DNA from: Chiloscyllium plagiosum
Lineage: Eukaryota
Direction: 5' to 3'
NCBI RefSeq assembly: GCF_004010195.1
Contig: NC_057757.1
Coordinates: forward strand, 7,338,610 to 7,402,609
Length of the DNA: 64,000 nucleotides
Shown: piece by piece, positions 11,430-64,000 of the stretch
Layout: each line of letters begins with the position of its first letter
Position numbering within the stretch: the first letter of the stretch is position 1
Translations under genes and position numbers: made by a program
Notes under the pieces: generated by a model
Databases searched by the model: none
What the model was told of the DNA's origin: nothing
What the model saw: the letters and a program-made list of their open reading frames with translations, nothing else

Positions 11430-12328
11430 CTATTTAATGAATTTTAAAAGTAGAGCATGGGGAAATTTCACCACATTCTTCAACTGTTCTCTGAACTTCG
11501 TCTGTGTCACAGCATAAATGCAAGTATTTGTGCAGCAACTCAGGAGCTGGAGCATGAAGCCAATTTCTTGCAGAAAGGTAGGCAGCATTACTGAATCATA
11601 CCCTAAATACATCATTCGCCACCATATTGTGTAGACCATCAATATTGACCAGAGGAGGATGAAATTCGCTGATATAACAAATAATAAGACCATGGATTTC
11701 CTTCGACTGTCCATCTCTGCATCTCTAGGAGTCTCCCCACTGCTGTGACTTCGGAGTCTCTTTCGGGCTCTGCTGCTCACTAAAATGTGTCTGACAGTCA
11801 AAGCATTGAGCAGCACAATCAGAACAAATGGGATGGCTGGTGTTATAATATGATGAAGGAACTCGATTATTGTCCAGACGGTTGATTTCATAACATCGGA
11901 TGTCATATAGCAAAACCAGGGAAAGTTCTGAAGCCAATACTCATTTGTGAGCATAAAATACCAAAAAATGTTCTTTAAACAGCTCAGCACTGTTACTGTT
12001 CCCACAACCACAGCCGCCATTTTCTCAGTGCAGTATTTACATTTCAACTGATGGCAACAAATGGCTACAAATCGATCAAAGGTGAAAGTGACTGTCAACC
12101 ACACAGAACAGTCTGTGACTGTATGAAGTAAGATGGCATGGATATTGCACACTTTAACGGAAAATAGGAAAAAGAACTGTTCCCGATAAACAATTGGAAT
12201 CTGCCTCAGTATCAGATCAAAGATAATGACCAGCAGATCTGCTGCTGCCATGGCCACGAGATAGCAGGTGATACATTTAGAGAGACCACACTTTCCTTGA
12301 GCAAGTATTGCAATTGTCACTAAATTAA
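11430..12328 (-). CDS. GPR139/GPR142-like class A GPCR, copy 1, exon 2 (spliced protein 361 aa)
   Basis: Acceptor ccttcctaacag|TTAATTTAGTG; ORF 11430..12320 contains YLVAMAAADLL, TFTFDRFVAIC, ITPAIPF and CCTNTCIYA; in frame with exon 1 across a phase-1 intron. Confidence 0.92.
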
Positions 12329-13370
12329 CTGTTAGGAAGGAGAATAAAAATGGAGGTTAGACCTCAGACTTTTCAAATCCTTACCAGCTCTGTTTAAATT
12401 TGACTAGTATAGTATTTGGGATGAAAAGACACCTGAGGAATAACAGGTTATAAGAAATCAAATAAAGTTCACTGCTGAACTGACAGTCACATGTGAATAT
12501 GAACATTGTTTGAGTGTTAAAACAAGAGAACTAATCCTCTGTTGGATCAAATCGTGACCTCAATATCTCTGGGATAATTTACATGCAAAACATGTTAAAA
12601 TGCTGATGCTTATTACCTTTCATCTGAGTGAATATTGGAAAATCAACCTCGCTAGTGAATTAACTCACGTGTGTATTAATTAATGTTTCACAGCCATGCA
12701 TAATTCAACTCAACTCCTGAGATGTGTCTGTAAGCGTTGGTCTATTTGATACTGAACATTTGTTGCCATTGGAGAATACAATATATATTTTTCCCAAACA
12801 CTAGGAGTTCAGTTGGAGAATGATGCAGTGACAAATAAATGTTTGTGTGATCAAACTTTACTGCAATGCTTCACATGAGTAGAGGAGTGAACTCCTGGAA
12901 CTAGGATTCAGCAGTAAGAGCGACAAACCCCAGGAGAGGAGACTGCATTTCAAATCATTGCTAATCAAGTATAAATTTGATTGTTTCCCAATAAAGGAAT
13001 TCAAAATTTTAATGTTTCTTCTATTTTATATAATCAATATGAGGTATTATGGCCTGTGTAAATATTGATCTTCCAATGTGTTTATCAGTAATTTCCAAAG
13101 TGTTTACCTATCATTTTATCTGGACTATTCATCTGGCAGTTGTGTATTGACACTTGGAAAACATTGGAACTACACAAATGAGGTTGATGTAATGTTGCGA
13201 CTGAAGGTTTAATTTGATAGTGAACAAACTTTAAAATGACAAATTCATATATTATCGTCGATTTTTGGCTTGCATTTTGATAACTAGTTGGGGCACTCAA
13301 TGATAAATGGCAATTCAGAAGAACAGTCAGGAATGGTTTATCGCGTTGAGAGCTGTCTGGAGAGACTTAC

Positions 13371-13557
13371 CTGGGACTCCAACAATAGCAAGGATTGGAT
13401 AGTATATGTACTGACTAATCCGAAGTGTGTAAAAGATTCGAGGTGCCAATGGTAGCCATTTGAAATATGTAGAAAGATAGTCAATCTCTGAGGAGAAACT
13501 CTTGCCCAGTGTTGTAAGATTCCAGTCTCCTGTTCCCAGATTCAGATTCAGCTCCAT
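13371..13557 (-). CDS. GPR139/GPR142-like GPCR, copy 1, exon 1
   Basis: ATG at 13557, reads MELNLN...IYYPILAIVGVP, donor CCAG|GTAAGT; 187 nt gives phase 1, matching exon 2. Confidence 0.85.
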
Positions 13558-21185: not shown

Positions 21186-21923
21186 TCTAAGGAACTGCGG
21201 AAGGTGAAAATCACAAAAACAGAAATCGCTGGAAAAGCTCAGCAAGTCTGGCAGCAATCTGTGGAAAGAAATCCGAGTTAAGGTTTCGGGTCCAGAGAAC
21301 CATCCTCAGGGTTCAAGGTCATGTTGTCCTTGGTTATTTTCAAGATGGGTCGTAAAGACAGAGGTGCCTATATGTCTGAACTGGCTACTGGCTACTTCGG
21401 CCAACAGATACTGACTAAGTTAACAATCAGAGGATGGCCTTTAGTTTGTTTTTGAAACATTTGTACAATGAAGGGAGGGACGTGTTCTCCCAGTTCAAGG
21501 TTCTTCAAGGTTGGTTTAAGTTTTAGCTGGGAATCTGGAGAAGCAGCTACAGTGAAAAGGGATTCCATGCTTCAACAGAGGTTTTGCCTAAACATTCTCC
21601 TGAAAAGATTCCAGCCTGTAAGAACCTGTGTTTGAATTTGCCTTTTTGCCAAGGGGTGTTGCAGTGATTGGAACAGCTTTTTTAAGTTGCTTCACCTGTC
21701 GGTTGGATTTTCAAACAAGTTATTCTAAATACTGTTTTCTTTTGTTCGTGTTCCATTCACAGTGTTGCAAATAAATTATGTTTTGTTTGAAGTTGAGTAG
21801 TTTGACCAGCTGCATCATTCCTCAAATATCCACCTTACATCTACCTTTACAAAAAAATAAAATAAAAGAATGGGCTACATTCTTGAAATGTTTTGAGGGT
21901 GTCTGGTCTGGTCCATAACAAAT

Positions 21924-21941
21924 TGGGGGCCCATCTGGGAT
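21924..21941 (+). promoter_or_regulatory. primer-binding site, tRNA-Pro type
   Basis: TGGGGGCCCATCTGGGAT matches TGGGGGCTCGTCCGGGAT at 15/18 and lies 3 nt after the LTR-terminal CA. Confidence 0.8.
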
Positions 21942-24062
21942 TTATTCTATAGCTCCAATTTGGGATTAGGGTGGCTGGACCCGAAGGCGGCAAGTGGTAG
22001 GTGTTAGTGTCTTTTGTTCCACGTCTTCAATTTTGTTGGTTTAAACAGTGCTTGGTGTAGTAATGGCTCTTTCAATTATTGAATGTTTTCTGGGGTTGGA
22101 AGACATCACTTTGGGATTTTACAAAAGGTGAACAAGACAAAGCTGACAAGCTGAAAATTGAAGTTGCCTCATAGTAATAGTTCAGCATTTAAATATTCTG
22201 GAAACACCATCAGAATCTTTAGAAATGGCTAAAATTGAATTGAAAATGAAGCAGCTTGAGTTAGAGGCAAAGGGAAAAGAAAGCGAAACAGAAATGAAAC
22301 AGTTTGAATTATGATTAAAAGCAGAGGAAAGAGAAAAAGAATCGAAGGTTTGAGCAAAACCAAAAAAGGGAGAAGGACAGAATTGCTTTACCAGAGCAAA
22401 ACGAAAAGGAGAGAGAAGAAAGGAGGAAGGAGAGACAGAGAGAAGAAAGGGAGAAAGAGTGAGGGAGGAAAGGGAGAAAGAGACGAAATGGAGAAAGAGA
22501 GAGAGTGTGAACTTCATGAATTGGCACTTAGATAAGAAAACCTGCCTAAAAGGATGGTGCTGAATTCAGAGAGTGAGGATGAGCAAACCATGGTAGCCAA
22601 AGGCCTGGTGAGGATCAGTTTAAATATATTCAAGGATTGCCTAAATCTGATGGGAAGTATCTGGAAGCCTTTGTCATCTCATTTGAGAAAGTGGCTAAAC
22701 AAATGCAGTGGCCGGTGACCTTTTGGTTTTGTTGATCCAAACAAAGTTGAAAGGAAGAGCTAGTGAGGCACTATCAGAGGAGGTATCTGGGGACTATGAG
22801 GAAGTGAAGAAAGCCATTTTAAATATGTGTGAGCTTGGGCGAGAAGACTGCAGACAATGTTTGCAGAATCTAAGGAGGGGCCCTGGTCAAACATACATTG
22901 AGTTTGAAGGGATCAAACCATGTAATTTTGAGAGGTGGATAAAGGCATTAAAAAGAGAGCATACATAGGACGGTTTTTTTTGAGGAGTTCAAATATTCAC
23001 TTCCTGAGGTAGTGAGAACTCAAGTGGAAGAGCAGAGAGTTAGAACAGCAAGATTAGCAGCTGAAATGGCTCATAATTATGAGTTGGTCCAAAAATAAAA
23101 GATTGGCTTCCAACATCAATTTCAATCTATGGTGGATCGAAATTGGGGATAACAGGAATCCTCACATGTTAAGAGAAATGTAGATCTCGGTGAAGATCAT
23201 GAGGATTAATTGACCACAAGGTAATAAAGCAAACCCATGAAGGGGAAAGAGAAGTTAAAAAGTCCTAGTGTTTTCACTGCAATAAAGTAGACCCACATGA
23301 AATCACAGAGTTGGTGGGTTAGGAAAAACATAGGGAGCTAGGTGTAGGGAAAAAAGATAAGCCAGTGAATTTTATTTGAGTGGTAACGGAAAGCACACCG
23401 GTGGCTAAAAAACTGCATCAGAATGTACAACCTGATCAGAGGCTGCCATGGAGTAAGTACCAGATCTTCTTAAATCATTTACGTGCGAAGGTAAAGTTTA
23501 CAGCATAGGCCAGGCGCAGCAGGTAAACAGATTACAGTATTAAGACAAACAGCATTATGTCAATCTTTGATATTGAGAGATGAGGAGATATGTAACCTAA
23601 AAAGATTATTGCCAGAAAAAAAAAGTGCTGGTCTGTGGAATTCATGATGAGACAAGAAGTGTTCAATTATGTACAGTGAGGTTAGAGTATGCTGTGAAGA
23701 GTGGAGAAGTTGTGGTAGGAATTCTAAACAAACTCTCAGCTCCAGGGATACAATCTGTCCGTGCTGATGATATAGCTGCTTCACAGGTAGGAATGCTGCC
23801 GACTGTGGTTGAAAAACCAGTGGAAAATTAGGCAACTGAGGTATTACAGGAAGCAAATCCTGGGATTTTTACTGACTGTGCAGCAATGAGGTAAAAGTCA
23901 CCGGTTAAAACAGGAGGAGAGACACAAGAATATATTTAAGAAAGTTGAAGTAGAATTAGCAGAGACCATGTTTGATCAAATGGTTGAGATATGACAAGAA
24001 TAGATGGAGGACAATGTGGATATTTTTAGCTTGGAGAAATTAACTGAGTTACAACAGAAGGT

Positions 24063-24468
24063 TGTTTGCTCACTCACTTTAATAATTTCAGTCCAAGACC
24101 AAAAATCTGAAACAGAGTCGTTTATTTGTACACTTGCAAGTGGGTGCCATGTCTAATGCCAGGTAAGGCAATGACAAATGCACAGTAAACCCCAACAAAC
24201 TCTCGCAATTTATACAGTTTTTTCCCATATTTTTTCCTTATTCCATTGTTTGTTCCCTGCTTCGCTTACATCATTCATTTCCTTAAGACTGATCCCACAA
24301 CTTCTGTTTATCCGGCCTTGTCCGTGACAAATGTCTATCTCTGCCNNNNNNNNNNCATTTTTGCTAAGTCAGCTCTCGTCCGAAACAATCCCACACTAAT
24401 GTGAATTCATTTACTCTGCATCAGAACTTATAATTGCAGAAATAACATTAATTCACCTATATCCCACA
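24063..24468 (-). mobile_element. probable solo LTR inserted in Gypsy copy B (contains a 10-N gap)
   Basis: Absent from copy A; TG...CA ends; minus-strand AATAAA at 24121-24126; GTTG on both flanks. Confidence 0.55.
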
Positions 24469-24559
24469 GTTGAAAAACTGGAGCAATTGTGTCATAAAGA
24501 ATACATGGAAGAAGAATTTAAGTGTATTCCTAACTGGTACTGTCTGAAAAATGATGTTT

Positions 24560-24663
24560 CATAGAACATAGAACATAGAACAATACAGCGCAGTACAGGC
24601 CGTTCGGCCCTCGATGTTGCGCCAATCCAAGCCTACCTAACCTACACTAGCCCACTATCCTCC
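24560..24663 (-). mobile_element. CR1 3' tail with (CATAGAA)n repeat
   Basis: TSD ATGTTTCA at 24554-24561 and 24664-24671; absent from copy A. Confidence 0.75.
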
Positions 24664-26257
24664 ATGTTTCAATGAGGAAATGGAGTCCATCACATATTCA
24701 GGCAAATGAGACATGGACAGAAGTACATCAAGTCATATTGCCAGTGGGTTATAGATAGGAGGTGTTGTGCGTTGCACATAAACTGCCAGTAGGAGGTCAT
24801 TGAGGGGTAATAAAAATTCAAGCTAAAATACAAAGACATTTTTACTGGCCTGGACTGCATACAGATATAGTTGAATTTTGCCAGACATATCATAGATGTT
24901 AGCTAATTAGAGAACCATAAGCAATAATAATGCCTGCATCTTTAATACACATTCCTGCATTTGAGAAACCATTTACAAGAGTCTTAATTGATTGCATAGG
25001 ACCCCTACCTAAAGCAAAAAGTGGAAATCAGTATTTGTTAACAATAATGGATGTGTCCACTAGGCTTCCAGAGGCCATTCCGTTAATGAACATCGCAACA
25101 AAAAGGATGGTGGACGAGTTAGTCACATATTTCACTGATATGGACTACCCACAGAGATGCGATCAGATAAGGGTAAAAACCTCAATTATTCAAAGAGGTT
25201 ATGGATAGCTTAAGAATGAAACAATTCAAATCCACCATGTAACATCCAGAATCATGGGGAGTACAAGAAAGATGGTATCAGAGATCACAGACCATGTTGA
25301 GGGCCTGTATTCAAGACTGTCCAGATGATTGGGATAAAGGAATTCCATTTGTAATTTTTGCTATTAGAGTTGCACCAAATGAATCGACCAAACTCAGTCC
25401 ATTGGAATTAGTTTTTGGGCATGAAGTGAGAGGACCGCTAATATTGATTATGGATAAGTTGGTAAATTAGAATTCAGAGATCACATGTTTGGACTGTGTA
25501 AAATTTTAGGGAACAATTACATAGAGCGACAGCATTTTAAAAAGTAAACCACAGTATGTAATGAAACAGGAAGCAGACAAGAAATCAAAAACAAACTCAC
25601 AAGTTTGCTACTGGAGATAGTGTTACTTCCAGTGATACGTGAACCTTGAAAAGTAAGGTTTAGTGGACCTTATCAAGTCAAAAGGAGAGCGAGTGAGGTG
25701 AAGTATTTAATAAGGATAGAAATCTCACAGACTGTGTCATGTGTTTCCCTGTATTTTGACAGGGAAGGAAAGCAAAGGGAGATTGTGTTACTGGTTACAA
25801 CACAGATGGAAGAATCATATTCAGTGGATTCTGAACTGGACGTTCCTCAAATTAAATTGGACAATAAGGAAATTCTTAAAAATTGGGATAAATTATTGAG
25901 TTACCTTCCAGAGGAAAATCAAAATGACCTGTAAGTGTTAATATCACATGAGGAGATATGTGGAAATAAGCTAGGAAGTACTAACCTAATCATGTATGAT
26001 GTAGATATAGGAGATGCTGTTCAGATGAAGCAACCTGAAAGGCATAACCCTATAAAGTTGGTTCAGGTTTAAAAGGAAATTGAATGCATGCTCCAAAACG
26101 ACATAATCGAAGTGCGCTACAGTGACTGGACGTCACCCATAGTAATGGTGCCAAAATCAGATGGTACCCAATGGTTATGTTTGGACTATCACAAAGTCAA
26201 TGCAGTTACAAAGACTGATGCACGTGCGTTTCCACATTTGGAAGACTGTATTGAAAA

Positions 26258-26775
26258 GTTAAAAGTCACACAACATCATGTTATAGTCCAACAGGTTTAT
26301 TTGGAAGTACTAGCTTTCTGAGCACTGCTCCTTCATCAAGTGTTTGTGGAGAATAAGATTTTACGACACAGAATTTGCAGCAAAAGTTTACAGTGTGATG
26401 TGACTGAAATTATACATTGAAAAAGACCCGGATTGTTCGTTAAGTCTCTCATCTTTTAGAATGACCATGTTGTTTTCATTTCTTTCATATGTAAATCGCA
26501 AAACTTTTCTTAATAGTTACATTCTCAAGTGACTTTAACAACTGGTGTCCTGTTAGCCCAGATAATGTATTAAAAGTGTGAGGCTGTCTGTGCCACAATG
26601 GTCAGACTGATTCCTGAAGAAGGACTAATGCCCGAAACGTCGATTCTCCTGTTCCCTGGATGTTGCCTGACCTGCTGCGCTTTTCCAGCAACACATTTCC
26701 ATCTCAGACTGATTCTAACCTTAAAAAAAAACAGATTTACAGAATCTTACATGGATTCATGTAGTTTTTAAGCAA
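26258..26775 (-). mobile_element. left half of the Penelope-like insertion orthologous to 7763-8734, with a nested hammerhead repeat at 26611-26703
   Basis: Same insertion point (after ttgaaaag, C[IV]EK); nested copy CTGAAGA-A-GGAC-TAAT-GCCC-GAAACGTC with TSD TCAGACTGATTC. Confidence 0.75.
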
Positions 26776-29933: not shown

Positions 29934-31252
29934 TCAATCTGTCCCATGATTTACCAATTTGTTGGAAGGGCTTTTCATCACATTCTTCAGCTCTCTCTGA
30001 ATCTGACCTGAATCACAGCGTAGATGCATGTGTTGGTGCAGCATCTTCGCTACATGATCTGTGATAAAGCCAGGGCCTGTGTAAGAGGAGTAACATTGAG
30101 TGTGTGTAATTCATGCATAAATATTGTACACAACCCGGGTCACCCACAGCAACACAAAACTGTCTGATATGCTGAATAGCAAAATGATGGACTTCCTTCG
30201 GCTCTCCGTCTCCACATTCTCTCCATTTCTTTGACCACTGAGACCCCTACGGTTTTGACTGCTCACTAAAATTCACCTGACAGCATATTGACCAGCAAGA
30301 TCAGAAAGAATGGCAAACGAGGGGCTAAAATGTAGCTAATCATTCGAATACACCTCATGCAAGGGAAGTGAAGTAACTGGTTTTGTGGGTGCAACTTAAT
30401 GCAATATTCTCAATGATGTAAAGTGGCTCATATATAAACTCCAGGGATCCCAGCAAAGTCACATTCCCCAGAAATATTGCTGCAGTCTTCTCAGTCCAAA
30501 CCTTCTCATAGCAAATGGCTATAAATTGGTCAATGGTGAATGTGACTGTGGGCCAGACAGAAACCACTGTGGTGGCTGACCCCAAGGTAGAAAAAAAAGA
30601 CAGCAAATATTTGTCATTCTCATGAATGAACATGGTAAATAAATTGGAACAGTGATCCACAGTATGGCATCAAAGACAACGACAAGGAGATAGGCCATAG
30701 CCATTCCAGTCAGGTAAAGAGTCACACATTTGGAGAGATCACACTTTTCTTGGGATAGGATGACAATCACCACCAGGTTAACTGTGAGGGAAGAGAGTGA
30801 AATCGAAGCGAATATTTACAGATCATGCCCAGAGTCAAAGAATAACGTGACAGAACTAAAGCAAACTTTGCAGCTTTGTTGTTGCATGACAGGTGTAAAC
30901 TGAAATATTGAGTGCTTTCTGACAAATACTTGCTTGAACCACAATTAGGAATAACATGTGTTGGAATACATAACACAGGAATTGCAAAACGCATGCAGGT
31001 TTATGGTGCATCTTTATGGGTAAAATGAATTTCCTACAAGAGTGAAGGAGCAGACATAATCACAGCACTTAACTATCAGAATACTACCAGTATTTGTTTA
31101 AACTGCACAGTGATAAATAATTAGTCTTAAATAGCACTGTTAACATCAACTTTCACCAGGAACACTTGAAATAACAGCTTACCAGTAACGCTAATGGCTG
31201 AAATAAAAGGAAAGAAAATATCTTGTATTTGCCATACAATTGGATATGCCAT
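29934..31252 (-). pseudogene. GPR139/GPR142-like GPCR pseudogene, copy 2 (exon 1 31183-31252, exon 2 about 29934-30781)
   Basis: Exon 1 MAYPIVWQIQDIFFPFISAISVT G|GTAAG; acceptor ctcacag|TTAACCTG; exon 2 is broken into frameshifted pieces (YLTGMAMAYLL, TFTIDQFIAIC, CCTNTCIYA). Confidence 0.85.
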
Positions 31253-35929: not shown

Positions 35930-36990
35930 CCTATTTTATTATGAGCTCCCTTACTCTCATATTTCATTTTCTCCTATCTTATTGCTTTTCTAAATTATCT
36001 TCTGTTGGTTTTTAAAGGCTTCGCAAGCCTCTGCCTTCCCATTGATCGTCACCATATTGTATGCTTTTTCTTTTGCTATTACGCTGATCCTCATCCCTTA
36101 TGTTTGCCTCATCCGCCCCTTGATATGTTTCTTCTTTCTTGGGATAAATTTGTGTTGGTGGTGCTTCCTAAATTACTCACAGAAACTCCCTGCCATTAAT
36201 ACTCCACCTTCTTCGCTACTCGGCTCCCCTTCCCATCAATTCGTGTCTTTCTAGCTACCTTTACTTAATTGCCATTGCATTACATCTGATTCAAGATTGT
36301 CCCTCTCAGTCTGCATGGTGAATTCTACCATGTTATGGTCAACGCCCTCCGGAGGTTGGAGTGGTGTAGGAGGGGGTGTGGGTATGGGGGTTTGAGTTCC
36401 TTTACCTTCAACTCCCTAACCATATCTGCATATGACATGATGTTCAGTCCAGAGTTCCACGTGCCATGTTCCTTGTTCCACCACAAGCTGCTCCAAAAAG
36501 AAGTCATAGACATTCCACGAATTCCACAAATTTGCGATAAACTGTCAAACTGATTTTCCCTGTCCACCCTGTGTACTGAAGTCCCCATGATCACGGTGCT
36601 ACTCCCTTACTTACCTGCCTTTCTAACTTCATATTTATTTTCATCCCTACATCCTGACTGCTGCTGGGAGGCCTGTACACCACTCCCATCAGGGGCATTT
36701 CTCCACCGTGGTTCCTCAATTCAGCCCACAAAGATTCTAACCTATCTGACTCCATATCACTTCTTACTGATATAACATCACCTTTTAGTAACAAGGCAAT
36801 GCTGCACCCTCTGCCCTGTCCTCCCAATAATATGGATGTCCTTGAAAATTTCCTTCCCAGCCCAGATTCCCTTGCAGCCACATTTCTGGGATACCCACAG
36901 CATTGCCCCACCCAATTCCAATCTGTGCTACAGTCTCATTTTCCTTGCTTTGTGTGCCGTATGCATTTAAGGGCAACAGCCTCATTCCTG
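35930..36990 (-). mobile_element. old CR1 ORF2 endonuclease region
   Basis: ESLWAELRN..LMGVVYRPPSS (36591..36911) and LLPLNAYGTQSK..EMWLQ. Confidence 0.65.
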
Positions 36991-37969
36991 TGTTGACTAC
37001 GCCCCTTCTCTTGTTGTCCCCTTGTCTGCTGTCCCTGGAGTTTATTCTGTGTCCTAACACCTGTTCTGGAAATGCTCCTAAACTCTGCTGAGCACTCCAG
37101 CCTCGAACATTTTCCATAATGTTCCATGCAAAAGAAGCGCCCTTCCCATTACTATTTAGCTTCAAGCCTAATCCACAGATAAAGTGATGTGATTCGCATG
37201 GACTCTGTTTCCAGCATGATTCAGGATAAGCTTTTAGCTCAAATGGGTGAGCACCTGATGAAAGGCTACGGGCCTCACTCTTTACATAGGACTCATGAAG
37301 ATAATAGTGTATTTCTGGTAGTGTGGACTTGATGGGCTGAAGCGTCTCTTTTGTGCTGCATGATTCAATAATCTCAATCCTAAATGTCATCCTCCTTATT
37401 TTTAGAAGGTGCTCCCTGGTTGTAGACTCCTGAAGCAGGTAAAACATCATTACCCTGCATTCACTCGACATCCTCCGCCTGGTCTATTTCTTGAACCAGT
37501 TTGGAACTTTCCCTGAAATTATCTCACATTCACAAAACTTGAGAAAATACAGACTTGGTTTATACAAATTCCCTTCGTAGGACAGTCTCACCATCCCAGG
37601 AATAATTCTGGCGAACGAAAAAGTGAAAAGTCAAGATTGAAGGGATTACTTACCCTTGTCTCAGTCACATCACAAATCACTTGCAGTTTTGGCAAGTTAA
37701 TACGAGTGGGGTGTAAACGTGAAGGGTTTGGGGCATTGATACACACGTTCCAGGTGGGATTTGAGAGGGGAAAATGCCCTCTGATAATCTGAGGGACACT
37801 GAAGATGTGGTCATACATTGGAGTGGCAAAACTGGTAATAAATCATTTTCATAGAATAACAGGAGAGAGAGGCAAAAAGTAAAGAGGAGATTTATTGACA
37901 AAATCTGCAAAGATGTGGATGATGAAGAGATTTATTTGCATTTATTTGTGAAAATGCCAATCAATTGCG

Positions 37970-38290
37970 AGTGGCACAATGGTTCAGTGATGTGCGCTGC
38001 TGCATCAGCAGACCAAAGACCCAGGTTCGATTCCACTTGAGGTGACTGTATCAGTATAGGTTTTGCATTCTCCCTGTATCTGCGTGTGTTTCCTCCCACA
38101 GTCCAATGATGAAAGGATTGATGAATTGGCCATGTTTAAGTTGCCCTTGGTGTCCAGGAATGTATAGGTTGGGTTGCAGAGGTCATGGGAGGTGTAGGGT
38201 TATTGAGTAAGAGGATAGGTCTGGTTGGGATGCTCTTCAGCATGTTGGTAGTTTGAATGGCTTGCTAACACTCTGTAGGGTGTCTATGGT
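37970..38290 (+). mobile_element. decayed HE1-type SINE
   Basis: gtggcacaatggttc, ggttcgattcc, tttcctcccacagtcca. Confidence 0.7.
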
Positions 38291-38768
38291 AATCTTTAGC
38301 TCTGCATCTGTGTGTTTCCTGTGCTTAGACCAGGCTTGATCCCTCACTCAGTGTGCCATTATCCTGCCTAAGACTCTTGACCCTGTCCAGATATCAACCC
38401 ACCCCCTCAACTCCCTCAGGGTTGAGGAAATGTAGAAAGCAGACTGATCCAAATGTATCAAAGACATTATTGATAAACATCAAATTACACAAGAACATTT
38501 CCAGTCTCTGCATGATTTTGATTTCTGATGGGAAAGTATATTTCTTCATTGACTCGACCTGGAAATTCAAACAGTGCAGGTGGGGTAGAGATTGTGGGTG
38601 CTGTTCCTTTTTTCTCTCCAGCAGGGGTCATCATGCTCTCATTTCCATTCAGTCCTCCAGCCAACACCTCTTGTCCAATGGCACACTGCTCTTTCACTTG
38701 TGTCTATTGGAAATCTGGGACATTCAAGGACTGGAAAAAAGAAAGTGGCCCCCACCTCTGGGTGCATC

Positions 38769-39679
38769 TCAGTTATTTTGCTTATTAAGTAACTGAATGA
38801 TCAATGTAACTGGATATTTCATCGCGCTTTCCAGCTGCTCTCTGAACCTTGACTGTGTGACTGCATAAATGAATGTGTTTGTGCAGCAACTCATATTCCG
38901 CAGCATAAACCCAACTTGTTGAAGTATATATTCAGAATCATTGTAATCTCCGGGATAAGTTCCTGTTTTGATATAGTATAAGAAATCTATGATATTTACC
39001 AACCAAAGAAGGATGAAGCTACCAGAAATGGTGAACAGTAAAATGATAGACTTCCTTCTACTCTCTATCTCTGGGTCTCTTTGATCCTCTGCCATGCTCC
39101 GACCCCTCAGTCCCTTACGGATCCGATTGGTCACTAAAATGTGTCTGATGGTCAAACAGTTGAATAACAAAATCAAAGCGAATGCGAGAAATGGGGTTAA
39201 AATTGTATCAAACCAGTCAAAACCCAGCCACCCAGGGTCTGTATAATAACTTGACTTTGGGTGACAGTCCCAGGATACATTATTGATTATCCATCCAGGT
39301 TGAAGGATAAAGTAGAATGGGACATTTTTTAAACAGAGTATGGTGCAGGTTGTTGCTAGAACCACAGTTGCAATTTTCCTAGTACAATATTTTCTTTTCA
39401 GTTTCTGGCAACAAATGGCCACAAATCTATCAGAGGAGAAAGTGACGGTGAACCAGACAGAATAGTCTGTCGCTGCTCGATACAGGGCATAAGTAACGCT
39501 ACACACAGGGGTGAGGTCCAGGAAGGTTCCCAGGAAATAATAGTATTTCATCCGCCGCAGTATGACCTCAGTGATCATGACTAGGAGATCTGCCATTGCC
39601 ATGGCCACCAGATAGCGAGTGGTGCAGATTGAGAGGCCACATGTTCGCCTGGACAGGATCACAACTGCAATCAAATTAA
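38769..39679 (-). CDS. GPR139/GPR142-like GPCR, copy 3, exon 2 (spliced protein 325 aa)
   Basis: Acceptor ttccttgcag|TTAATTTG; ORF contains YLVAMAMADLL, TFSSDRFVAIC and CCTNTFIYA; the first ~38 aa of the track ORF 38769..39794 are intronic. Confidence 0.92.
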
Positions 39680-40420
39680 CTGCAAGGAAGAGTAGGGAAA
39701 AGAGACTGGAAATTAATCGATTAAATATTCTGTTCAGCCAGACAGGGGCACCACACCAAACAAATGTATGTGCCAGGTTCAATGCATGTACCAAAAATGA
39801 AAATGTGTTAACCTAATCACAGTCCCAGCTCCATCTCACTGACAGTTAGGTTTAATAGAGTCAGGACGCAGGTTAATAGGCAACGTCTCCCATTGAGGCC
39901 AGTTATGAATTTAAATATCTGAAATGGGTTTAATCTCTTAAATGGGTTTAACTTTTCTTCATTTGAACAGGCAGGTCTGTTGGGTTTCCAAGAAGTTTTT
40001 AAAATTTTCACTGGATGGAGATGAAGAGAGGTCCCTGGAGAAGATGAGCCACTTCAGAGTAATACTTGCAGTCGAGGAAATTCTCCCCACTGTTCCCCAT
40101 CCGAATCTGCCCATGGACTGTCAGACACACTGATACAGAGTACACCAATTTGGTGCAAGGGATCTCACAGATTCGACAACTTCCCTCTCTCACCCACATA
40201 AAAGTCAGATAACGTAAATTGGAAAGTTGCAAAGTAGAGATATATTTTCGTTGAGACCATTACTTTTAACAAGGGGAAGGGAAAAATAATGAATGATGGA
40301 CTGATTGAGCACCTATAGAGTGGCAAGCATTAAATAAGCGCACATCGACATCAGTCAGAGTAATACCAAAGAACAGTTCACAGCCCAGTTTAAACAACGT
40401 CCACAGGTACAGTCACTCAC

Positions 40421-40487
40421 CAGGAACTCCAATGACAGCAAGGATCAGGTAATATATTTTAGCAACGCTGGAAAATGTTTCACGCAT
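40421..40487 (-). CDS. GPR139/GPR142-like GPCR, copy 3, exon 1
   Basis: MRETFSSVAKIYYLILAVIGVP then G|GTGAGT; 67 nt gives phase 1. Confidence 0.85.
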
Positions 40488-44410: not shown

Positions 44411-44714
44411 TATTTTGGCACCATGAGTAATCACTTTGATTCCTGACCCCCTTTTCTGCCCCATTCACAGGCTAGATGTCAGCCCACACACACTCACAAT
44501 GCTATTTTGGAACACTCGGGGAAGTGCCTTTTCCAAGTCTTTACATCACTCATCGATGTTTGTGTACTCTCTAGCATCACCACAGACCAAGGACCAAGTG
44601 ATACTGATGTTATATGAGGCTGGTTGTTATCGTCATTATTAGCGGGGACCTAGTGATGTTGTTGATGTTGTAGGATTTTGTGGACCGGCTTCCCCCCTTT
44701 TTTTATTTTTATTT

Positions 44715-47700
44715 TTATATTTTTTTGGTGGGGTTCGTCCAGTCCTTGTCTCGGTGGAGGATCTTATCGCACAGTTTACGGGTTTTAGCTCTCTTGTCAC
44801 TGAAGAGTTGTAAGAGTTCAAGTGTCAGTGACAGAGTGAGTCTTGATGTTTTTTGGGCGAACGTATCGTATCTTTCGATGCTAAGGAATTTAATGAGGCG
44901 GTTATTCATACCCAGCCACTTGCCTCGTGTGCCCATCATGAAGCCAAAGTATTTGGGGTCCGCGCCTCCCGTCAATTCCATGACCTCGGCATTTAGGTGA
45001 TTATATTTCTCGTGTTTCTCTTGCCATGCTGTTTCCAGTGCTTTACTATCATTCTCGTACCGCACTGTGACATCTACAAACGCGATCTTCTGGTCTTTTC
45101 TAAATATGAGATCGGGCTTCCATAGGGAACCGTTTTTGGCAAATAGCCTGGGCTCCACGTACGATGTCCAGCCATACTTACTGACTTGCTTCTGCAACTG
45201 GTCAGCGATCTTGTTATGGCGTTTTATTCGAGCATTTTTCACGAAAGGGCAGCATCCTGAGATGTGTGATATGGTCTCGTTTGCCATCTCACACCTTCGG
45301 CATAGTTTGGTTCGGTTTGGCCTTCCTCTAGATTGTGTGGCTCTTGTCGGGTATAGATTAAACCACGAGAGCATGCTGCTTATGAATCTAGAGGATTTTT
45401 GTTGTACTCCGGCTTTTGTCCAAGAATTAGAGATCTTGTCATCTCTAAAGTACTGGATGCCTTCCCCTTGACATTCCAGCTTTTGCCATTTTTCGAATTC
45501 CCACTCCACCCAGCCAGCATACCTCGCGTTTGCCTCCTGGAGTGCAGGCATGATGCCTTGGACGGCGGTCATCGGGTCGATTTTCCCTTCGCCGCTGCTG
45601 CAGTTACTGGGTTGGAAATTTTCAATTTCTTTGAGGACCTTGAGCTCGCGCAGTCCCGCAACGGTCTTTGTGTTGCTCTCACCTTTATATTGAAAGAGGC
45701 CCGAATGACCACACCACTGGACATGTCTGGTGCCTCACATTTGTGAACAATCGCGGATGGGATTTGCACCTCCAGTTTTGGGACGCCTGGACCGCCGTTC
45801 CTGTTGCTAGCGTATAGCACTCCGTCTGCGATATGAGGTGGTAGGTGTAGGAATTCTTTGGTGGCGTTGCGGATTATTTGGTCCAGCTTTGTGAGAGTAG
45901 CCTGTGACGCTTCTGTCAGGATCAGATGGAAGTACAATTGGGGGATGACATGTATCTTTAGGAGCTCCAGCCGTTGTCGTGGTCGGAGAGGTGCTGCCTG
46001 TATTCTTAAGCTTCTCCTCCCAGTCCCCTTCTGCCACACCTGCCCATGGATCGATCCGGGCACCCAGGTATTTCTCTGTGTCACCTGGGGGTATGTGGGC
46101 TATGGCTTCGTCCCGCAGCTTCCAGTTTGCGAAGTGATTGTACGAAAAGGTCTTCCTTTTAAAAGTGAAGTGGAATCCCTTCGTCTTCGCTGTGTTAATA
46201 CTGAGGCCTGGATGGTCACAGTATTTCTGGAGCAGCTTCAGTTTCCTAGCCATACCAGTGTGTGAGTCGCTTAGAAGGGCGATGTCATCCGCGAAGGCCA
46301 AAGTTGACTCTTCTGCCACCCAGGGGCATGGCGACCCCTGAGTTAGCCCTCTCCAGAGAGCACACCAAAGCGATGTTAAATAATATTGGTAAGAGTGGGT
46401 CGCCCTGCTTTATGCCCCTCTCGATAGTTATTGGGTTAAGTTTCCATTCCCTTCCACCACTATTGTGTTGCCAGTGTATAAGTCTTCGATGAGACTTACA
46501 AAGGCTTTGGGCAGTTTCACTCTTTGCAAAGATTTGATCAATAGCATGTGCCCAACCGAGTCAAACGCTTTTACTAGATCGACAAAGACAACCGCGAGGC
46601 CCTTACGATTGTACTTTGCTCCCTTGATGATGTTTTCGAGGACCACAATGTTTTCATTGCATCCGGGAGTGGCTGCTAGGAATCCCTTTTGCCTGGGGTT
46701 TATCTCGACTGTTTCACTCAGGCGTTTAGCCATTGTTTTCGTGAACAGCCAGAGCAGCATTGGACCGATGGTTATTGGCCGCCAGTTAGCAATGCTTTTC
46801 AAGTGTTCCTTATCCTCGCACTTAGGAATCAGGACCGTTCGACTCTTTTTTAGTGAATCAGGGATCATGCTTGACTTTAGCCATAAGGAGAAGAGGCGGG
46901 TTAGACGGGTTTCCTCCTGCTCATGGAGTGTTCTTATGTCCTGCAGTTTCAGGCCGTCTGGTCCGGCGGCACTGTTCTCGTCTATCCCCTTGATGGCCGC
47001 TTCAAGCTCCTCTACCTCTATGGGTTTCATCAAGGACCCGTCATCGACTTTGCCAGTGTATGGGGCATACTTATTTATGTTTGATTTCTTATTTGGTGCT
47101 GACAGTTTCTCACGGAAACATGACTCCACTTCCTCTCTTGATAGAGGACAAGCAGATGAGGTCGGCGCCCCCATGATCTCGCGAGCTAGTTGACGCTGGT
47201 TGGATTTGTAAAGCTGCTGTGTTGCTCTAAATTGCGCCTTACATGCTGCCCACCATGTTTTGGCTCCGGTATTGCTGCCGGGCCTTTTGTCTTTCTGGGC
47301 CCGATCTTTCTGGGGCCTCTTGTGTTTGCCCTGTCTTTTCCTACTATTCATTAGTAGGTCGGTAATACTCTCCACTAGTCCGATTCCAAGGGCAAGCGTG
47401 TCCAGGTCATTCCTCGCGCTCAAAAGCTCCTCAGCTTGTGTAAGCTGGTCATCTACGTCCCGATGTTTAGGGATCGAAGCCGGTGTTTTTCGGCTGGCTC
47501 TTTGGCGCTGGGCTTGGTCGTCGGAATTTCCCTGGACACTCTCTGCCTCAGAATCGTGCGAGTCTATACCCGTCGTTGGCTCGCTGATGTTCTTGACCTC
47601 CGTCGGGGTGTTTGCCAGGAGCCTGCGCTTGTCTGAGATTTGCTTTGGTGTTTTGGTTTTCAGGGTGCTAGCGATGGATTTGTTTATAAACTTGCATCCT

Positions 47701-48549
47701 GAAAATCTCACCTCTAATTCCCTCAGGAGTGCCACCTCCTCCCGTGACCATACGCGGTCGCTTCTCCCAGGTTTGCCCTTGACTTTGGGTGCCGGTTTGA
47801 GACGTCTCTCGTTTCGTAGAACCGGGTGTCTGTGCCTCTCGTGTTGACCAAGGCCTGATTGTGTTGGTCACATGCGCTGCATGTAAAGTCCTCAGTTGGG
47901 GGTTGTTTCACTCCTTCGCATTTTGGGTAATGGCAGGCTATTGAGTGGTATTCTCCTGCCTTATTGCAGCGTGAACATCTTGTTCGGATGTTCTTTATTC
48001 CGTGCACTTTAGGCACATGGGTCTTAAACATGCTCACCGTGGGGAAGAGGGTGTTGCAGTCCTTGCAGAACAGCCCATTGACGGGATAGTGGATGATTAC
48101 CTCCGAGACAGATGTTCTGTCACATACTGGCTCGATAACAACTCCTTCCATGAAGGCAGTTGCATCATCTGTTTCCTCGCCAGTCTCATTCATAGTCTTT
48201 TTTGTGTCTGTGCCCTGCTTTATATCTCGATAACTTTTGTTGTAGAAGGTTTGGGTGGTTATGCTTATCTCAACCACAGGGTGGGCTGCCCTTACAGTGC
48301 CTTCTTCAACGTTATCTTTGTTATTCGTTACAGGGTGAGCCGGCTCCCTGAGAGGGGTGACCAGTCTCAGCTCCATGTAAGGTAGGAGGTAACGTCTCAA
48401 GGTCTGGATGAGATGGACCTTGTTGCAGGTTTTATACATGTACAACCTAATGACTTGTCACAGCTCTCGGTTGTGGACGAGGCTGCGGGGAGGTTGTTTT
48501 TCTGGGACACTTCCCAGCCGGACTGCTCCGTTGAAAATGGAAGACTCAT
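44715..48549 (-). pseudogene. disrupted R2 ORF (pieces 48397..48624, 47723..48445, 46428..47735, 45807..46319, 45569..46084, 44715..45572)
   Basis: Consecutive minus-strand ORFs give the R2 domain order with several frameshifts; the start codon is uncertain. Confidence 0.85.
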
Positions 48550-48604
48550 ACTGGTTTTTTGAGAGCTGGTCAGTCTAGACCACATCCGTCTTGTACTTTT
48601 TCTG

Positions 48605-48762
48605 ATCGTTTGGTCACCCAACATCCAGGATTGCTGGGTTTACCGGCGGGGCCAGCGGGGAGGCACGACACACACTATGCGCCAAAAATACATGAAAACG
48701 TCATAGTCGGCAACTATGCCTCCTTGACCAAGGCAAGAAAGAGAGTCATAGTTACTCCCGCC
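48605..48762 (-). ncRNA. HDV-like self-cleaving ribozyme at the R2 5' end
   Basis: P1 GGCGGG/CCCGCC; P2 GUCGU/ACGAU; P3 GCC/GGC with L3 UCCCCGCU; P1.1 GG; P4 ACCCAGCA/UGUUGGGU; J4/2 GACCAA. Confidence 0.88.
48739..48762 (-). other. 24-nt 28S rRNA remnant (positions -28 to -5 of the R2 target site)
   Basis: GGCGGGAGTAACTATGACTCTCTT is identical to the conserved 28S sequence preceding AAGG|TAGCC; flanks are not rDNA. Confidence 0.92.
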
Positions 48763-49779
48763 AATGATGAGGTTCCAGCTTCCTCCCTGCTATCTCTCTC
48801 TCACTCATCACTGGATATGTTTGATCACACTGCAATAACTTGTGCTCCTCACGCTGCAATATCTATCAATCAGGATCGGGGAGAAGTGTTGCCTGTGGGT
48901 GATGTGTAATTCCATCCCAGTTTTCAAGCTGGTGTCTGGTCATGGCTTTGATGTTGTCTGAACTTTGATACTGTTTTTCAACTGTGATGACCTGTCCTAG
49001 CTTCCCCATTTGTTACAATTCCAGATTAAAGTTTTCAAGCCATTAAACTCCTGAGTGAGATGAAGTGGCTACTTTTGATTATAGGCCTCCTCCCTTCAAC
49101 CTTTGCAAGGAATTTCTTTTGGAATGATCTTTTTCTCCGAGACCCAAAATGACCTGAGGATTTGAAAGGTGCGAATTTTATCAGGATTCCTTGAATCAGC
49201 AAAAAGATTGAGGTTATTCATTACTAAATTCGAAAATGTATCATGTGATATTGCACATATGCACAGTTTAGAAATATAAAGTAGGTCTAAGGGCTGTGGT
49301 AGATAGCACGTTTTAGGAATGACCACGAGACACAGAGAATACCTCAAGATGATAAGCCTTTAGCTGCAAACAACAGCTATGGCCATCACAGCAGATGACC
49401 CTGAAAGCCTGTGAACTGTGAGCGTACTCTAATGTTTATGCTCTTCTAAAAACCACACTCCATCCCTGTTACATTAGCATAACCAATCGCACTAAGCCTA
49501 CGTTATATCCCCTTTAAACAATCAGATTCTGCCACAATTGTCTTCTGGATTGCTCCAGACCCTCACGTTGTGCGTGGTCATCTTTATTCACCTTTTTTCA
49601 CCTGACAGGCTGTAGTCACGCAAGACTGAACCAAACATGCAACCCAGATCTTACACTTACGGAACGTCTCAACATGTATTACTTTGAAGTTATATATTCA
49701 TATTTACCATTAAAACAAGACACAAGTTATAACTAAGGATAATATAGATATGGTCTGAATGCTCATGAAGGACAGGTAG

Positions 49780-59908: not shown

Positions 59909-60490
59909 TTAGTTCTCAGATTTCAAACCCTTCAATCTGTTGCAAGATTTAATGATTCGCTTCATCGAATTCTTCAGCTCATCTCTAAACTTAGCCTGGA
60001 TCACAGCGTAAACGCATGTGTTTGAACAGGAGCTGAGCACCTGCAGCATCTTGGCTTTGGAATCTGTGATAAAGCCAGGGTCATTGTAGGAGGAGTAATA
60101 TCGGGTGTGTGTAAATATTGCACGCAACCTGGGTCACCCACACATCACAAAACTGCCTGATATACTGAAGAGCAAAATGATGGACTTCCATTGCTTCTCC
60201 ATCTCTGCATCCTTGTGTTTCTCTCCAATTCTTTGCCCACGGAGACCCCTGCAGATTTGACTGCTCACTAAAACACGCCTGACAGCACATTGAATAGCAT
60301 GAAGAAAGAATGGCACACAAGGGGTTAAAATGTAGTTGATCATTTCAAAGGCAGCCCACGCAGGGGAAGTGAAAGAAGTGGATTTATGGATCCAACCCCT
60401 TGGAATATTGTCCATAATGTACCGTGGCTCATATATAAAGTACCAGGGTAGAGATTCCAATTCCCAGAAATACTGCTGCAGTTTTTCTCA
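59909..60490 (-). pseudogene. GPR139/GPR142-like GPCR pseudogene, copy 4 (5' half deleted)
   Basis: ESLPWYFIYEP..YILTPCVPF..KSIILLFSISGSF and SCSNTCVYAV lie in different frames; upstream sequence jumps to the homolog of about 31610. Confidence 0.85.
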
Positions 60491-60827: not shown

Positions 60828-61143
60828 TGGGGCTGCACGGTGGCTCAGCTACCTCACAGCACCAGGGTCCCGGTTCGATTCCAGCTTTGGGCCAGTATCT
60901 GTATGGAATTTCCACGTTCTCCCCGGGTCTGGGTGGGTTTCCTCAAGTTTCCTCCCACAGTCCAACGATGTGCAGGTCAGGTGAATTGGCCATGCTAAAT
61001 TGCCTGCAGTGATAGGTGCATTAGTCAAGGGTTAATATAGGGGAATGGGTCAACTTGGGTTGCCCTTCAGCGGGTCGGTGTGGACTTGCTGGGCCTAAGG
61101 ACCTGTTTCCACACTGTAGGGAATCTAATCTAATCTAATCAAT
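60828..61143 (+). mobile_element. HE1-type SINE
   Basis: ggttcgattcc B box, ggtgaattggccatgctaaattgcc, (aatct)n tail. Confidence 0.85.
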
Positions 61144-61914
61144 CACTTTTAATAACGCAGCAATCCTGCACCCTCTGCCTATCCTCCCTACAGTATGGAT
61201 ATCCTTGAAAATTTCCTTCCCAGCCCAGATTCCCTTGCAGCCACATTTCTGGGATACCCACAGCATTGCCCCACCCAATTCCAATCTATGCTACAATCTC
61301 ATTTTCCTTGCTTTGTGTGCCGTATGCATTTAAGTGCAACAGCCTCATTCCTGTGTTGACTACGCCCCTTCTCTTGTTGTCCCCTTGTCTGCTGTCCCTG
61401 AAGTTTACTCGGTGTCCTAACACCTGTTCTGGAAATGCTCCTAAACTCTGCTGAGCACTCCAACCTCGAACATTTTCCATAATGTTCCATGCAACTGAAG
61501 GCCCCTTCCCATTACTATTTAGCTTCAAGCCCTATCCACAGATAAAGTGATGTGATTCGCATGGACTCTGTTTCCAGCATGATTCAGGATAAGCTATTGA
61601 GCTCGGATGGGTCAGCACCCGATGGAATGTTTCAACATTCAAGGCTACAGGCCTCACTTGGTACATGAGACTCAATTGATGGGCTGAAGGGCCACTTTTG
61701 TGCTGCATGATTGCATAACCACAATCCTAAATGTCATCCTCCTTATTTTTAGAAGGGTGCTCCCTGGTTGTAGACTCCTGAGGCAGGTAAAACATCATTA
61801 CCCTGCATTCACCCGACATCCACCGCCTGGTCTATTTCTTGAACTATTTTGGAACTTTCCCTGAAATTATCTCCCATTCATGAAACTCGAGAGATTACAG
61901 GCTTGGTTTATACT

Positions 61915-62182
61915 GGTGCTTCAGAGGGCCAGAAACCTAGTTTCGATTCCAGCATGTGACGACTGTCTCTGTGCAGTGTGCACGTTCTCCCCGTGTCCAC
62001 GTGTGTTTCTTCCCACAGTCAAATGATGAATTAGCCATGCTTTGGTATCCATGGATGGATAGGTTGGGTGCAGAGGTCATGGGAGGTATAGGCTTATTGG
62101 ATAAGTGGGTGGGATGCTCTTCAGAGAGTCGGTGTGAACTTTTGGGTCGAATGGCCTGTTACACACGGTAGGGATTCTATGG
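61915..62182 (+). mobile_element. decayed HE1-type SINE, paralogous to 37970-38290
   Basis: Shared gggtgcagaggtcatgggaggt and the same 3' flank. Confidence 0.65.
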
Positions 62183-62574
62183 TTTTCTTCAGCTCAGGAT
62201 CTGTGTATCTCCTGTGCTAAGACCAGCTTTGAACCCTCACTCAGTGTCCCATAATCCTGCCTGAGACTCTTGACCCTGTCCAGACATCAACCACCACCCC
62301 CCAACTCCCTCAGGGGAAATGTAGACAGCAGACTGATCCAAAATGTATCAAAGACATTTTTGATAAACATCAAATTACACAAGAGCGTTTCCAGTCTCTG
62401 CATGATTTTGATTTCTTTTGGGAAAGTTTATTTCTTCATTGACCAGAGCTGGAAATGTAAACAGTGCAGGCGGGGTTGAGATTGTGGCTGCTGTTCCTTG
62501 TCCTCCCCAGCAGGGGTCATCATGCTCCCATTTCCATCTAGTGCTCCAGCCAACAGCTCTTGTCCAATGGCACA

Positions 62575-63578
62575 CTACTGTTTCACTTGTGTCTGTTGGG
62601 AGTCTGGTGTAGCTATTACATTGAAGGACTGGGAAAAAATAAAAATGGTCCCCATCGCTATGTGCCTCTTAGCTATTTTGCTTCTTAAGTAACTGAATGA
62701 TCCAGTAACCGGATATTTCATTGTGCTTTCGAGCTGCTCTCTGAACCTAGACTGTGTGACTGCATAAATGAATGTGTTTGTGCAGCAACTCATATTCCGC
62801 AGCATAAACCCAACTTGTTGAAGTATATATTCAGAATCATTGTAATCTCCGGGATAAGTTGCTGTTATAATATAGTATAAGAAATCTATGACATTTACTA
62901 ACCAAAGAACAATGAAGCTGCCGGAAATGGTGAACAGTAAAATGATAGACTTCCTTCTACTCTCTATCTCTGGGTCTCTTTGATTCTCTGCCTTGCTTTG
63001 ACCCCTCAGTCCCTTACGGATCCGATTGGTCACTAAAATGTGTCTGATGGTCAAACAGTTGAATAACAAAATCAAAGCGAATGCGAGAAATGGGGTTAAA
63101 ATTGTATCAAACCAGTCAAAACCCAGCCACCCAGGGTCTGTATAATAACTTGACTTTGGGTAACAGTCCCAGGGTACATTATTGATTATCCATCCAGGTT
63201 GAAGGATAAAGTAGAATGGGACATTTTTTAAACAGAGTAAGATGTAGATTGTTGCTAGAACTACAGATGCAGTTTTTCTAGTGCAATATTTTCTTTTCAG
63301 CTTTTGGCAACAAATGGCTACAAATCTATCAAAGGAGAAAGCGATGGTGAACCAGACAGAATAGTCCGTTGCTGCTCGAAGCAGGACATAATTAACACTA
63401 CACACAGCGGTTAGGTCCAGGAAGGTTCCTGGGAAGTAATAGTAATTGATCCGCCACAGTATGACCTCAGCAATAATGACCAGGAGATCTGCCATTGCCA
63501 TGGCCAGCAGATAGCGAGTGGTGCAGATCGAGAGGCCACATGTTCTCCTGGATAGTATCACAATTGCAATCAAGTTAA
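62575..63578 (-). CDS. GPR139/GPR142-like GPCR, copy 5, exon 2 (exon 1 beyond the window; C-tail frameshift-extended)
   Basis: Acceptor ttccttgcag|TTAACTTG; open frame through all remaining TM helices (AFSFDRFVAIC, CCTNTFIYA); close paralog of copy 3. Confidence 0.85.
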
Positions 63579-64000
63579 CTGCAAGGAAAAATAGGGAAAA
63601 GAGACTGAAAATTAATCGATTAAACATTCTGCTGAGCCAGACAGGGGTCCAGCACAAAAGAAATCAGCATGTGCCAAGTTCAGTGTATATACCAAAAATA
63701 AAAATATGCAAACCTGATCACAGTCCCAGCTCCATCTCACTGACAGTTAGGTTCAATAGAGTCAGGGCATGGAGTAATTGGCAACATCTCCCACTGAGGC
63801 CGGGTTATGAATTTGAATATCTGAATTGGTTTGATTGTCTCTGATTTAAGTTTTCTTCCATTGAACACAGGGGCTGCTGGCTTTCCAAGACCTTTGTAAA
63901 AGGATCACTGGACAGAGCTGAAGACAGAAGATAAGCCACTCCAGGGTAAAGCTTGCAACCTTGGAAAATCTCTTCACCTCTCCCCCATCCATCTATTCCC

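Follow-up and report, generated by a model that had tools for sequence, protein, structure and literature searches.

A full-length R2 element in a receptor gene cluster

The window, by which we mean the whole 64,000-nucleotide stretch of the Chiloscyllium plagiosum genome analyzed here (contig NC_057757.1, positions 7,338,610 to 7,402,609), contains a tandem cluster of two-exon receptor genes (Table 1). Three rhodopsin-type GPCR open reading frames lie on the minus strand, the same strand as the ribozyme described below, as an earlier note on this DNA had reported, and the neighboring genes are GPR139-like. Two units, one close to 30 kb and one close to 60 kb, seem broken. Local duplications with 83-87% identity underlie the cluster (window positions 3353-8078 and 21353-26582; 36777-40102 and 61142-63990).

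The ribozyme at 48762-48605 is the 5′ end of a frameshifted full-length lineage-A R2 non-LTR retrotransposon that runs from 48762 to 44505. Its reading frame, correctly described before as dead, is split into six frame segments, and the domain set of R2 is complete across pieces parted by frameshifts: zinc fingers, Myb, reverse transcriptase, CCHC knuckle and restriction-like endonuclease. The piece carrying Myb and the start of the reverse transcriptase had vertebrate R2 proteins as its best PDB matches (E 1.7e-69, compared with 1.3e-24 for silkmoth R2 and 1e-11 for LINE-1). The alignment to R2Tg residues 212-303 takes in two fingers and the start of a third, which finishes in the next frame piece. 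Three N-terminal fingers together with Myb place the element in lineage A, and its architecture of three fingers, Myb, reverse transcriptase, CCHC and restriction-like endonuclease is like that of the lineage-A proteins R2Tg, PDB 9dou, 9nl3 and 9nl2. Lineage A has been reported from cartilaginous fish, where R2 has been catalogued (Hassan et al. 2026, PMC13188248). A short internally deleted R2 (SIDE) was rejected on the length of 4258 bp and the presence of all domains.

Table 1 Features of the window, with positions numbered from its first nucleotide
Feature	Position	Strand	Remark
Tandem cluster of two-exon GPR139-like receptor genes	11430-13450, 29950-30800, 38769-40487, 59960-60460, 62575-63663	-	
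Full-length lineage-A R2 non-LTR retrotransposon, broken ORF	44505..48762	-	4258 bp; ends from copies and empty paralogous sites
Target-site remnant GGGAG	48783..48787	-	register of 28S -25..-21; empty paralog L120 in same register
28S rRNA-derived leader	48739..48762	-	-28 to -5 of R2 target; all 24 nt as in 28S copy L059; cleavage predicted at G48762
P1 5′ strand, 28S-derived	48757..48762	-	6/6 pairs with 48650-48645
J1/2	48670..48756	-	87 nt, two hairpins; 42 nt in oldest subfamily
Remnant of older internalized 28S leader within J1/2	48700..48707	-	older copies align from 48707, with their own 28S leader attached there
Ribozyme core (P2 5′, P3, L3, P3′, P1′, P1.1 GG)	48643..48669	-	
P2 5′ strand	48669-48665	-	5-bp helix
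P3	48664-48662	-	3-bp helix with P3′ 48653-48651
L3	48661-48654	-	
P1′	48650-48645	-	
P1.1 GG	48644-48643	-	2 bp
P4 hairpin	48616..48639	-	8 bp
J4/2 with candidate catalytic C at 48613	48610..48615	-	role suggested by position
P2′ strand	48605..48609	-	outer pair G.U in window copy
ORF piece, N-terminal zinc fingers	47723..48457	-	aligns to R2Tg residues 212-303, E 1.2e-9
ORF piece, end of ZnF1, Myb, start of reverse transcriptase	46428..47867	-	matches R2 proteins
Three overlapping frame pieces, remaining reverse transcriptase and thumb	45569..46560	-	
ORF piece, CCHC knuckle and restriction-like endonuclease	44715..45734	-	E 4.5e-54 to R2 protein 9nl2
3′ untranslated end, last four letters A	44505..44714	-	end common to 45 parsed copies
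Target-site remnant TAGC	44501..44504	-	equals 28S +1..+4; in both empty paralogs

The copy lies outside any 28S gene: it is flanked by a duplicated unit from the GPCR cluster, and the window has no Rfam rRNA match. Two paralogous units farther along the contig (L120 and L121) are without the element, and their empty sites join cleanly. Compared with these, the window copy has no target duplication and at most one base changed, at -1. Contigs of run X1, which is possibly not independent of the assembly, cross both junctions, and the insertion is therefore not an assembly artefact. Two further organisms (B and C) carry the R2 family at similar depth; among the pieces listed for them, none crosses a junction of the window copy.

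An HDV-like ribozyme with a 28S-derived P1

Every ribozyme segment named in the earlier note is present on the minus strand where it had been placed. P1, P1.1, P2, P3 and P4 of an HDV-like nested double pseudoknot are all able to pair in the window copy, and C48613 is retained in 20 of the 22 aligned copies. The partner of the first G of the ribozyme is C in this copy and U in the oldest subfamily. A descriptor search, which the note had recommended, gave one match on both strands of the window and none in 20 shuffles, a weak control given that the descriptor was derived from this motif. Rfam models produced no match anywhere in the window at gathering score and two chance matches in a relaxed search around the element; neither the gathering score nor a limit of E ≤ 10 yielded an HDV-family match to the element. 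The 87-nt J1/2 may be the reason for the absent match to the HDV clan. When 16 sequence sources were searched with a covariance model of the core, every match was a family member, and the second R2 family mentioned below went undetected. Taken on sequence, the element is supported as an HDV-like ribozyme with cleavage predicted before G48762.

The core was aligned for 22 of 26 copies, with L004, L015, L021 and L025 excluded for deletions or rearrangement, and 92.3% of alignment cells are paired. Of the covariation among homologs that the note had named as a test, two-sided changes are seen at four pairs (counts that kinship inflates), all of them in P4 and none in P2, P3 or P1.1. The claim that all helices are intact stands for the ability to pair and is weakened in two respects. 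The outer P2 pair is G.U in the window copy compared with G-C in 19 of 22 copies, and the J1/2 base at 48733, which differs from that of the three closest siblings, lets the 5′ strand of P1 pair inside J1/2. In a nested model without the pseudoknot, this alternative pairing lowers the probability of P1 to 0.05, compared with 0.96-0.98 in the three siblings; adding 30 nt of flank lowers P1 in all four modelled copies, which marks the limits of such a model. The window copy is thus predicted to misfold, and to fold worse than its siblings. Free folding of the window copy, a method that does not extend to pseudoknots, did not recover the ribozyme fold.

The first 24 nt of the element are those of 28S positions -28..-5 in a 28S copy of the same genome (L059), the 28S identity coming from an Rfam LSU match on L020. 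P1 is therefore of 28S origin, as had been proposed, but the 28S sequence was not captured by the element: it belongs to the host gene upstream of the target and would be renewed with each cycle, and it looks captured because this copy inserted outside 28S. Nor is the arrangement unusual. Eickbush, Burke and Eickbush (2013, PMC3774820) describe many R2 ribozymes that use 28S as the 5′ strand of P1, with -28 as the most frequent cleavage site, zebra finch included, so that in their account no R2 arrangement is commoner than a 28S P1 combined with a cut at -28, and a 2026 review (PMC13580325) treats the retained 28 nt as typical. The window ribozyme shares with the R2 ribozymes of PMC3774820 the 28S P1, the predicted cut at -28, a P1 of 6-7 bp, a long variable J1/2, the candidate catalytic C in J4/2 and leader duplications. 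It differs in that the copy stands outside rDNA, and its leader has consequently been frozen in chromosomal DNA.

The 5′ boundary coincides with the predicted cleavage site G48762, as the note had maintained, since the empty paralogs L120 and L121 place the flank up to 48764/48763. Across the family, 13 of 26 5′ ends begin at the G at -28 (one of them at an internal duplicate of it), 12 begin 1-11 nt inside, and one continues upstream into 28S. This clustering is an indirect sign of cleavage and fits the suggestion that the template was self-cleaved and fully copied; the series of 5′ ends can be read as a fossil map of the putative ribozyme cut. All 26 ends bear a 28S leader, and its majority base equals 28S at each of the 18 positions that were scored in every one of the 26 copies, while the element itself has evolved. 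J1/2 lengthens along the tree from 42 nt to 80-105 nt as a new leader is added before the old one, which then decays. In several younger junction types the target is complete up to -1, and a second leader, which carries mutations, comes after it. Leader duplications at rDNA insertions were modelled in Fig. 8 of PMC3774820; the dated series of stray copies displays the stepwise growth of J1/2 that the figure could only model. Rebuilding of the leader to -1 would require master elements inside 28S genes. At the 5′ junctions of L014 and L017, the leader is immediately preceded by short stretches that repeat the leader or the upstream motif in inverted form, in a snap-back-like arrangement.

The earlier note had also suggested that read-through transcripts of the GPCR genes could be cut here. 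Such cutting is possible in principle but unsupported: from the cut it is 8.3 kb downstream to position 40487, where the first coding exon of the nearest gene begins. We consider it very improbable that selection maintains the window ribozyme, as an intronic or a read-through ribozyme, for the cutting of RNAs from the GPR139-like cluster. Ribozyme and receptor genes do share a strand and the core helices can all pair, but, judged by coding exons, the element lies between genes, the paralogous units do without it, and its P1 is predicted to form far less readily than in the siblings. The core is intact in 5 of 22 copies overall and in 4 of 11 young copies at unrelated loci, which are as well preserved as the window copy. 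With a terminal branch of only 0.039, an intact core is expected by chance, and its preservation is probably what neutral decay gives. A host-gene ribozyme of the CPEB3 type was also considered and rejected, the element being outside the coding exons of its neighbors and attached to a whole R2; a position in a 5′ untranslated intron is possible.

Dispersed copies and their landing sites

DNA searches returned 26 5′-end matches and 44 and 41 3′-end matches, which resolve to at least 62 loci; of these, 59 are spread over 32 large contigs. Further protein matches raise the family to at least 74 loci. In a tree of 27 3′ ends, the copies are tips of a ladder-like topology, and the end branches measure 0.02-0.11. 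Every copy given a score in the protein search is broken or partial. Six reads came from the approximately 2% of one poly(A) single-cell run that was read, none of them at ≥99% identity. The old-subfamily 3′ piece and flank of L053, L054 and L055, on three chromosomes, are 100% identical over 1.9-3.4 kb, for which very recent duplication, transport by another element and an assembly artefact are possible readings. Another locus, L048, is a 5′-truncated copy that differs from the others in being flanked by a target-site duplication of 97 bp, at 92% identity.

One copy (L020/L123), the one whose 5′ end continues into 28S, is inserted at the exact canonical site of a 28S fragment. It has 157 nt of 28S before it and a further 264 nt or more after it, and the family is therefore a true 28S R2. 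None of the 26, 44 and 41 DNA matches or the 38 28S matches listed is a family copy within an intact rDNA array, a weak negative because rDNA is under-assembled, and no high-depth master was seen among the read contigs listed. The elements of PMC13188248 are defined by insertion in 28S, whereas the family described here is dispersed; the supplementary tables of that study may list it.

Other R2-like pieces are present in the genome. A second R2 family, with approximately 45-55% protein identity to the window element, is dispersed over many chromosomes (L061, L063, L065-L068, L071, L072 and L078-L080, each located downstream of its 28S stretch). Its copies found by the 28S query carry from 100 to more than 1500 nt of upstream 28S, and its P1′ is a run of C that fits a run of G at the element's own 5′ end; this fit suggests cleavage at the junction, perhaps inefficient. 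At L058, L062 and L081, 28S is broken at the R2 site by an R2-like 3′ tail of approximately 55 nt and resumes downstream. These tails are either extreme 5′ truncations or a short non-autonomous form.

Once L054 and L055 had been set aside as duplicates of L053, along with three 3′ loci that did not parse, 45 3′ junctions were left. In each of them the base after the tail is T (43 times in register, twice behind a tail that lacks one A), with A at +2 in 38 and G at +3 in 27. Upstream, at least six of the seven bases of the 28S motif GGGAGTA occur in 8 of 25 copies compared with 2.1% of background windows, and in 5 of 20 compared with 1.7% when copies at the recurrent LINE site are left out. This motif, which was picked after the flanks had been viewed and with 5′ junctions set by hand, is the best of 34 7-mers from 28S -40..-1; its reverse complement is not enriched, and about a third of copies have no clear upstream motif. 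The insertion site of the window copy equals 28S at 19 of 32 positions, a value reached by 2 of 119420 other window positions. The 17 paired junctions showed no target-site duplication beyond three matches of 5-8 nt, which are at chance level. The bias toward TAG may come from a nicking preference or from pairing with downstream 28S left on the RNA; L040, which carries 28S +1..+14, fits the latter. L038 and L040 both seem to be inserted in one repeat family, at points separated by a few bases, which may make it a third recurrent site, and three more junctions have a second repeat site in common.

Membership in the non-sequence-specific R2NS families was rejected, given a T at +1 in 45 of 45 junctions, enrichment of the motif near -25 and a recurrent LINE site. 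The same junctions bear on the idea that the strays are R2-inserted pieces of rDNA moved by recombination, with the rDNA flanks lost later (orphons). L020/L123, flanked by 28S on both sides, and the 28S fragments scattered through the assembly would fit such an origin. However, all 45 parsed junctions are precise at the last base of the element, the empty paralogous and LINE sites join cleanly, which contradicts the idea for the window copy, and recombination would not yield 5′ ends clustered at -28. We regard orphons as an extremely improbable source.

One recurrent landing site is a single nucleotide in the reverse-transcriptase gene of a LINE, hit by 12 of 45 junctions at a fixed threshold and by 14 of 46 with two added by eye. 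We take this LINE to be of CR1 type from its peptide motif; Pfam gave only a weak reverse-transcriptase match. Of the 12 empty LINE copies parsed, 11 show the site, with a majority sequence of GGGAGTA at -26..-20 and TAG at +1. The site is itself repeated, with 1691 preliminary candidates at a first look. Copies at the site lie in the LINE's sense orientation wherever both junctions are visible. Seven are in the tree, where six changes are needed and at least four are forced by well-supported branches; together with their different 5′ junctions, this makes them separate events. A LINE-R2 chimera amplified from one origin was rejected, since 0% of bootstrap trees have a single origin. L019 is inserted close to this LINE nucleotide but faces the other way, and its 3′ end is absent from the two stretches examined. 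For spacing, R2Bm is reported to tolerate one extra base (PMC10499050).

The site preference resembles that of R2Tg. Off-targets of R2Tg in human cells match 28S in two places, the -25..-19 stretch, to which ZnF1 and the RT6a loop bind, and the bases that directly follow the nick on its downstream side (Edmonds et al. 2025, PMC12222951); the shark strays have the same two similarities. Those off-targets came from engineered donors in cultured cells and made up <1% of reads, whereas here the insertions are natural and germline, accumulated over a long time and include a recurrent LINE site. In a further study, PMC11371274, off-target sites resembled the target little outside the primer region, a result that fits the upstream motif less well. 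On balance, a recurrent, independently struck LINE site within a natural off-target map that matches R2Tg is probable.

Probable off-target insertion by rDNA-resident R2

Non-rDNA copies of R2 have been described in five Drosophila species (Stage and Eickbush 2009, PMC2718515) and in silkmoth (Xiong et al. 1988, cited in PMC10499050), and the R2NS families of flatworms are non-specific (Kojima et al. 2016, PMC5035012). Like the insect strays, the copies studied here stand outside 28S at sites partly similar to the target; unlike them, they are many. With its numerous strays, clear site bias, retained 28S leader and canonical-site copy, the family falls between the insect strays and R2NS. The literature covered, which also took in PMC11331408, PMC11204384 and PMC13343379 and consisted of the text of open papers, contained no description of dispersed cartilaginous-fish R2 or of an R2 hot spot in CR1; supplements, Repbase and Dfam may include the family.

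The best explanation, which we hold to be very probable, is that R2 masters resident in rDNA shed dead off-target copies that persisted, of which the window copy is one. A lineage-A family residing in 28S genes would be transcribed within the rRNA precursor, and its HDV-like ribozyme, with 28S -28..-23 as the 5′ strand of P1, would cleave the RNA at a point 28 nt upstream of where the element is inserted. In most cases the R2 protein would reinsert the element into 28S, but it would occasionally nick a look-alike site (GGGAGTA-like near -25, T at +1) and prime reverse transcription there. With nothing to anneal to at a stray site, the 28S leader would be written into the chromosome. Stray copies would have neither promoter nor offspring and would decay neutrally; they may have piled up because, unlike rDNA copies, they are not purged by rDNA turnover. 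Because at least 62 strays is far above the Drosophila or silkmoth reports, loosened specificity could be involved instead of mere accumulation.

A family that has left rDNA altogether would account for some of the same observations. As a self-propagating generalist resembling R2NS, it would own its leader by now, and the ribozyme would free the element from host or LINE read-through transcripts. This is consistent with the at least 62 dispersed loci and the lack of an array-resident copy among the matches listed, with the placing of 12-14 of about 46 copies on a single nucleotide of the LINE, in LINE sense orientation where both junctions are seen, and with the existence of non-specific R2 families in flatworms (PMC5035012). 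It is nevertheless improbable, because the leader is host 28S in all subfamilies and its repeated rebuilding to -1 needs a 28S target, one copy is at the canonical site, the LINE-site copies are scattered tips requiring six changes on the tree, and every copy scored by protein search is broken or partial. Similarly doubtful, and to the same degree, is a cycle independent of rDNA in which specificity has loosened and the nucleotide in the presumed CR1-type LINE serves as a second home, with transcription from the LINE promoter and release by the ribozyme. Were that full claim true, R2 could persist without rDNA by means of a LINE promoter and its ribozyme.

Off-target insertion from rDNA-resident masters thus remains the preferred reading, and under it the ribozyme itself is one more member of a described class, its 28S-derived P1 already known. 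The new part, a dispersed family with 28S-like landing sites and a LINE hot spot, is a modest and testable addition. The review PMC13580325 argues that the division into site-specific and non-specific elements is too simple and that differing rates of loss inside and outside rDNA can mislead, and this R2 family is a direct case of that warning. Lineage-A R2 proteins are under development for gene insertion into rDNA, with off-target rules so far drawn from cell assays; the at least 62 off-target events in this shark are a natural germline record in which the -25..-19 motif of those assays appears again and a hot spot is carried by a repeat. The series of stray copies would further serve as a fossil 5′-end map of the predicted cleavage, and as a record of how J1/2 has grown by internalized 28S leaders.
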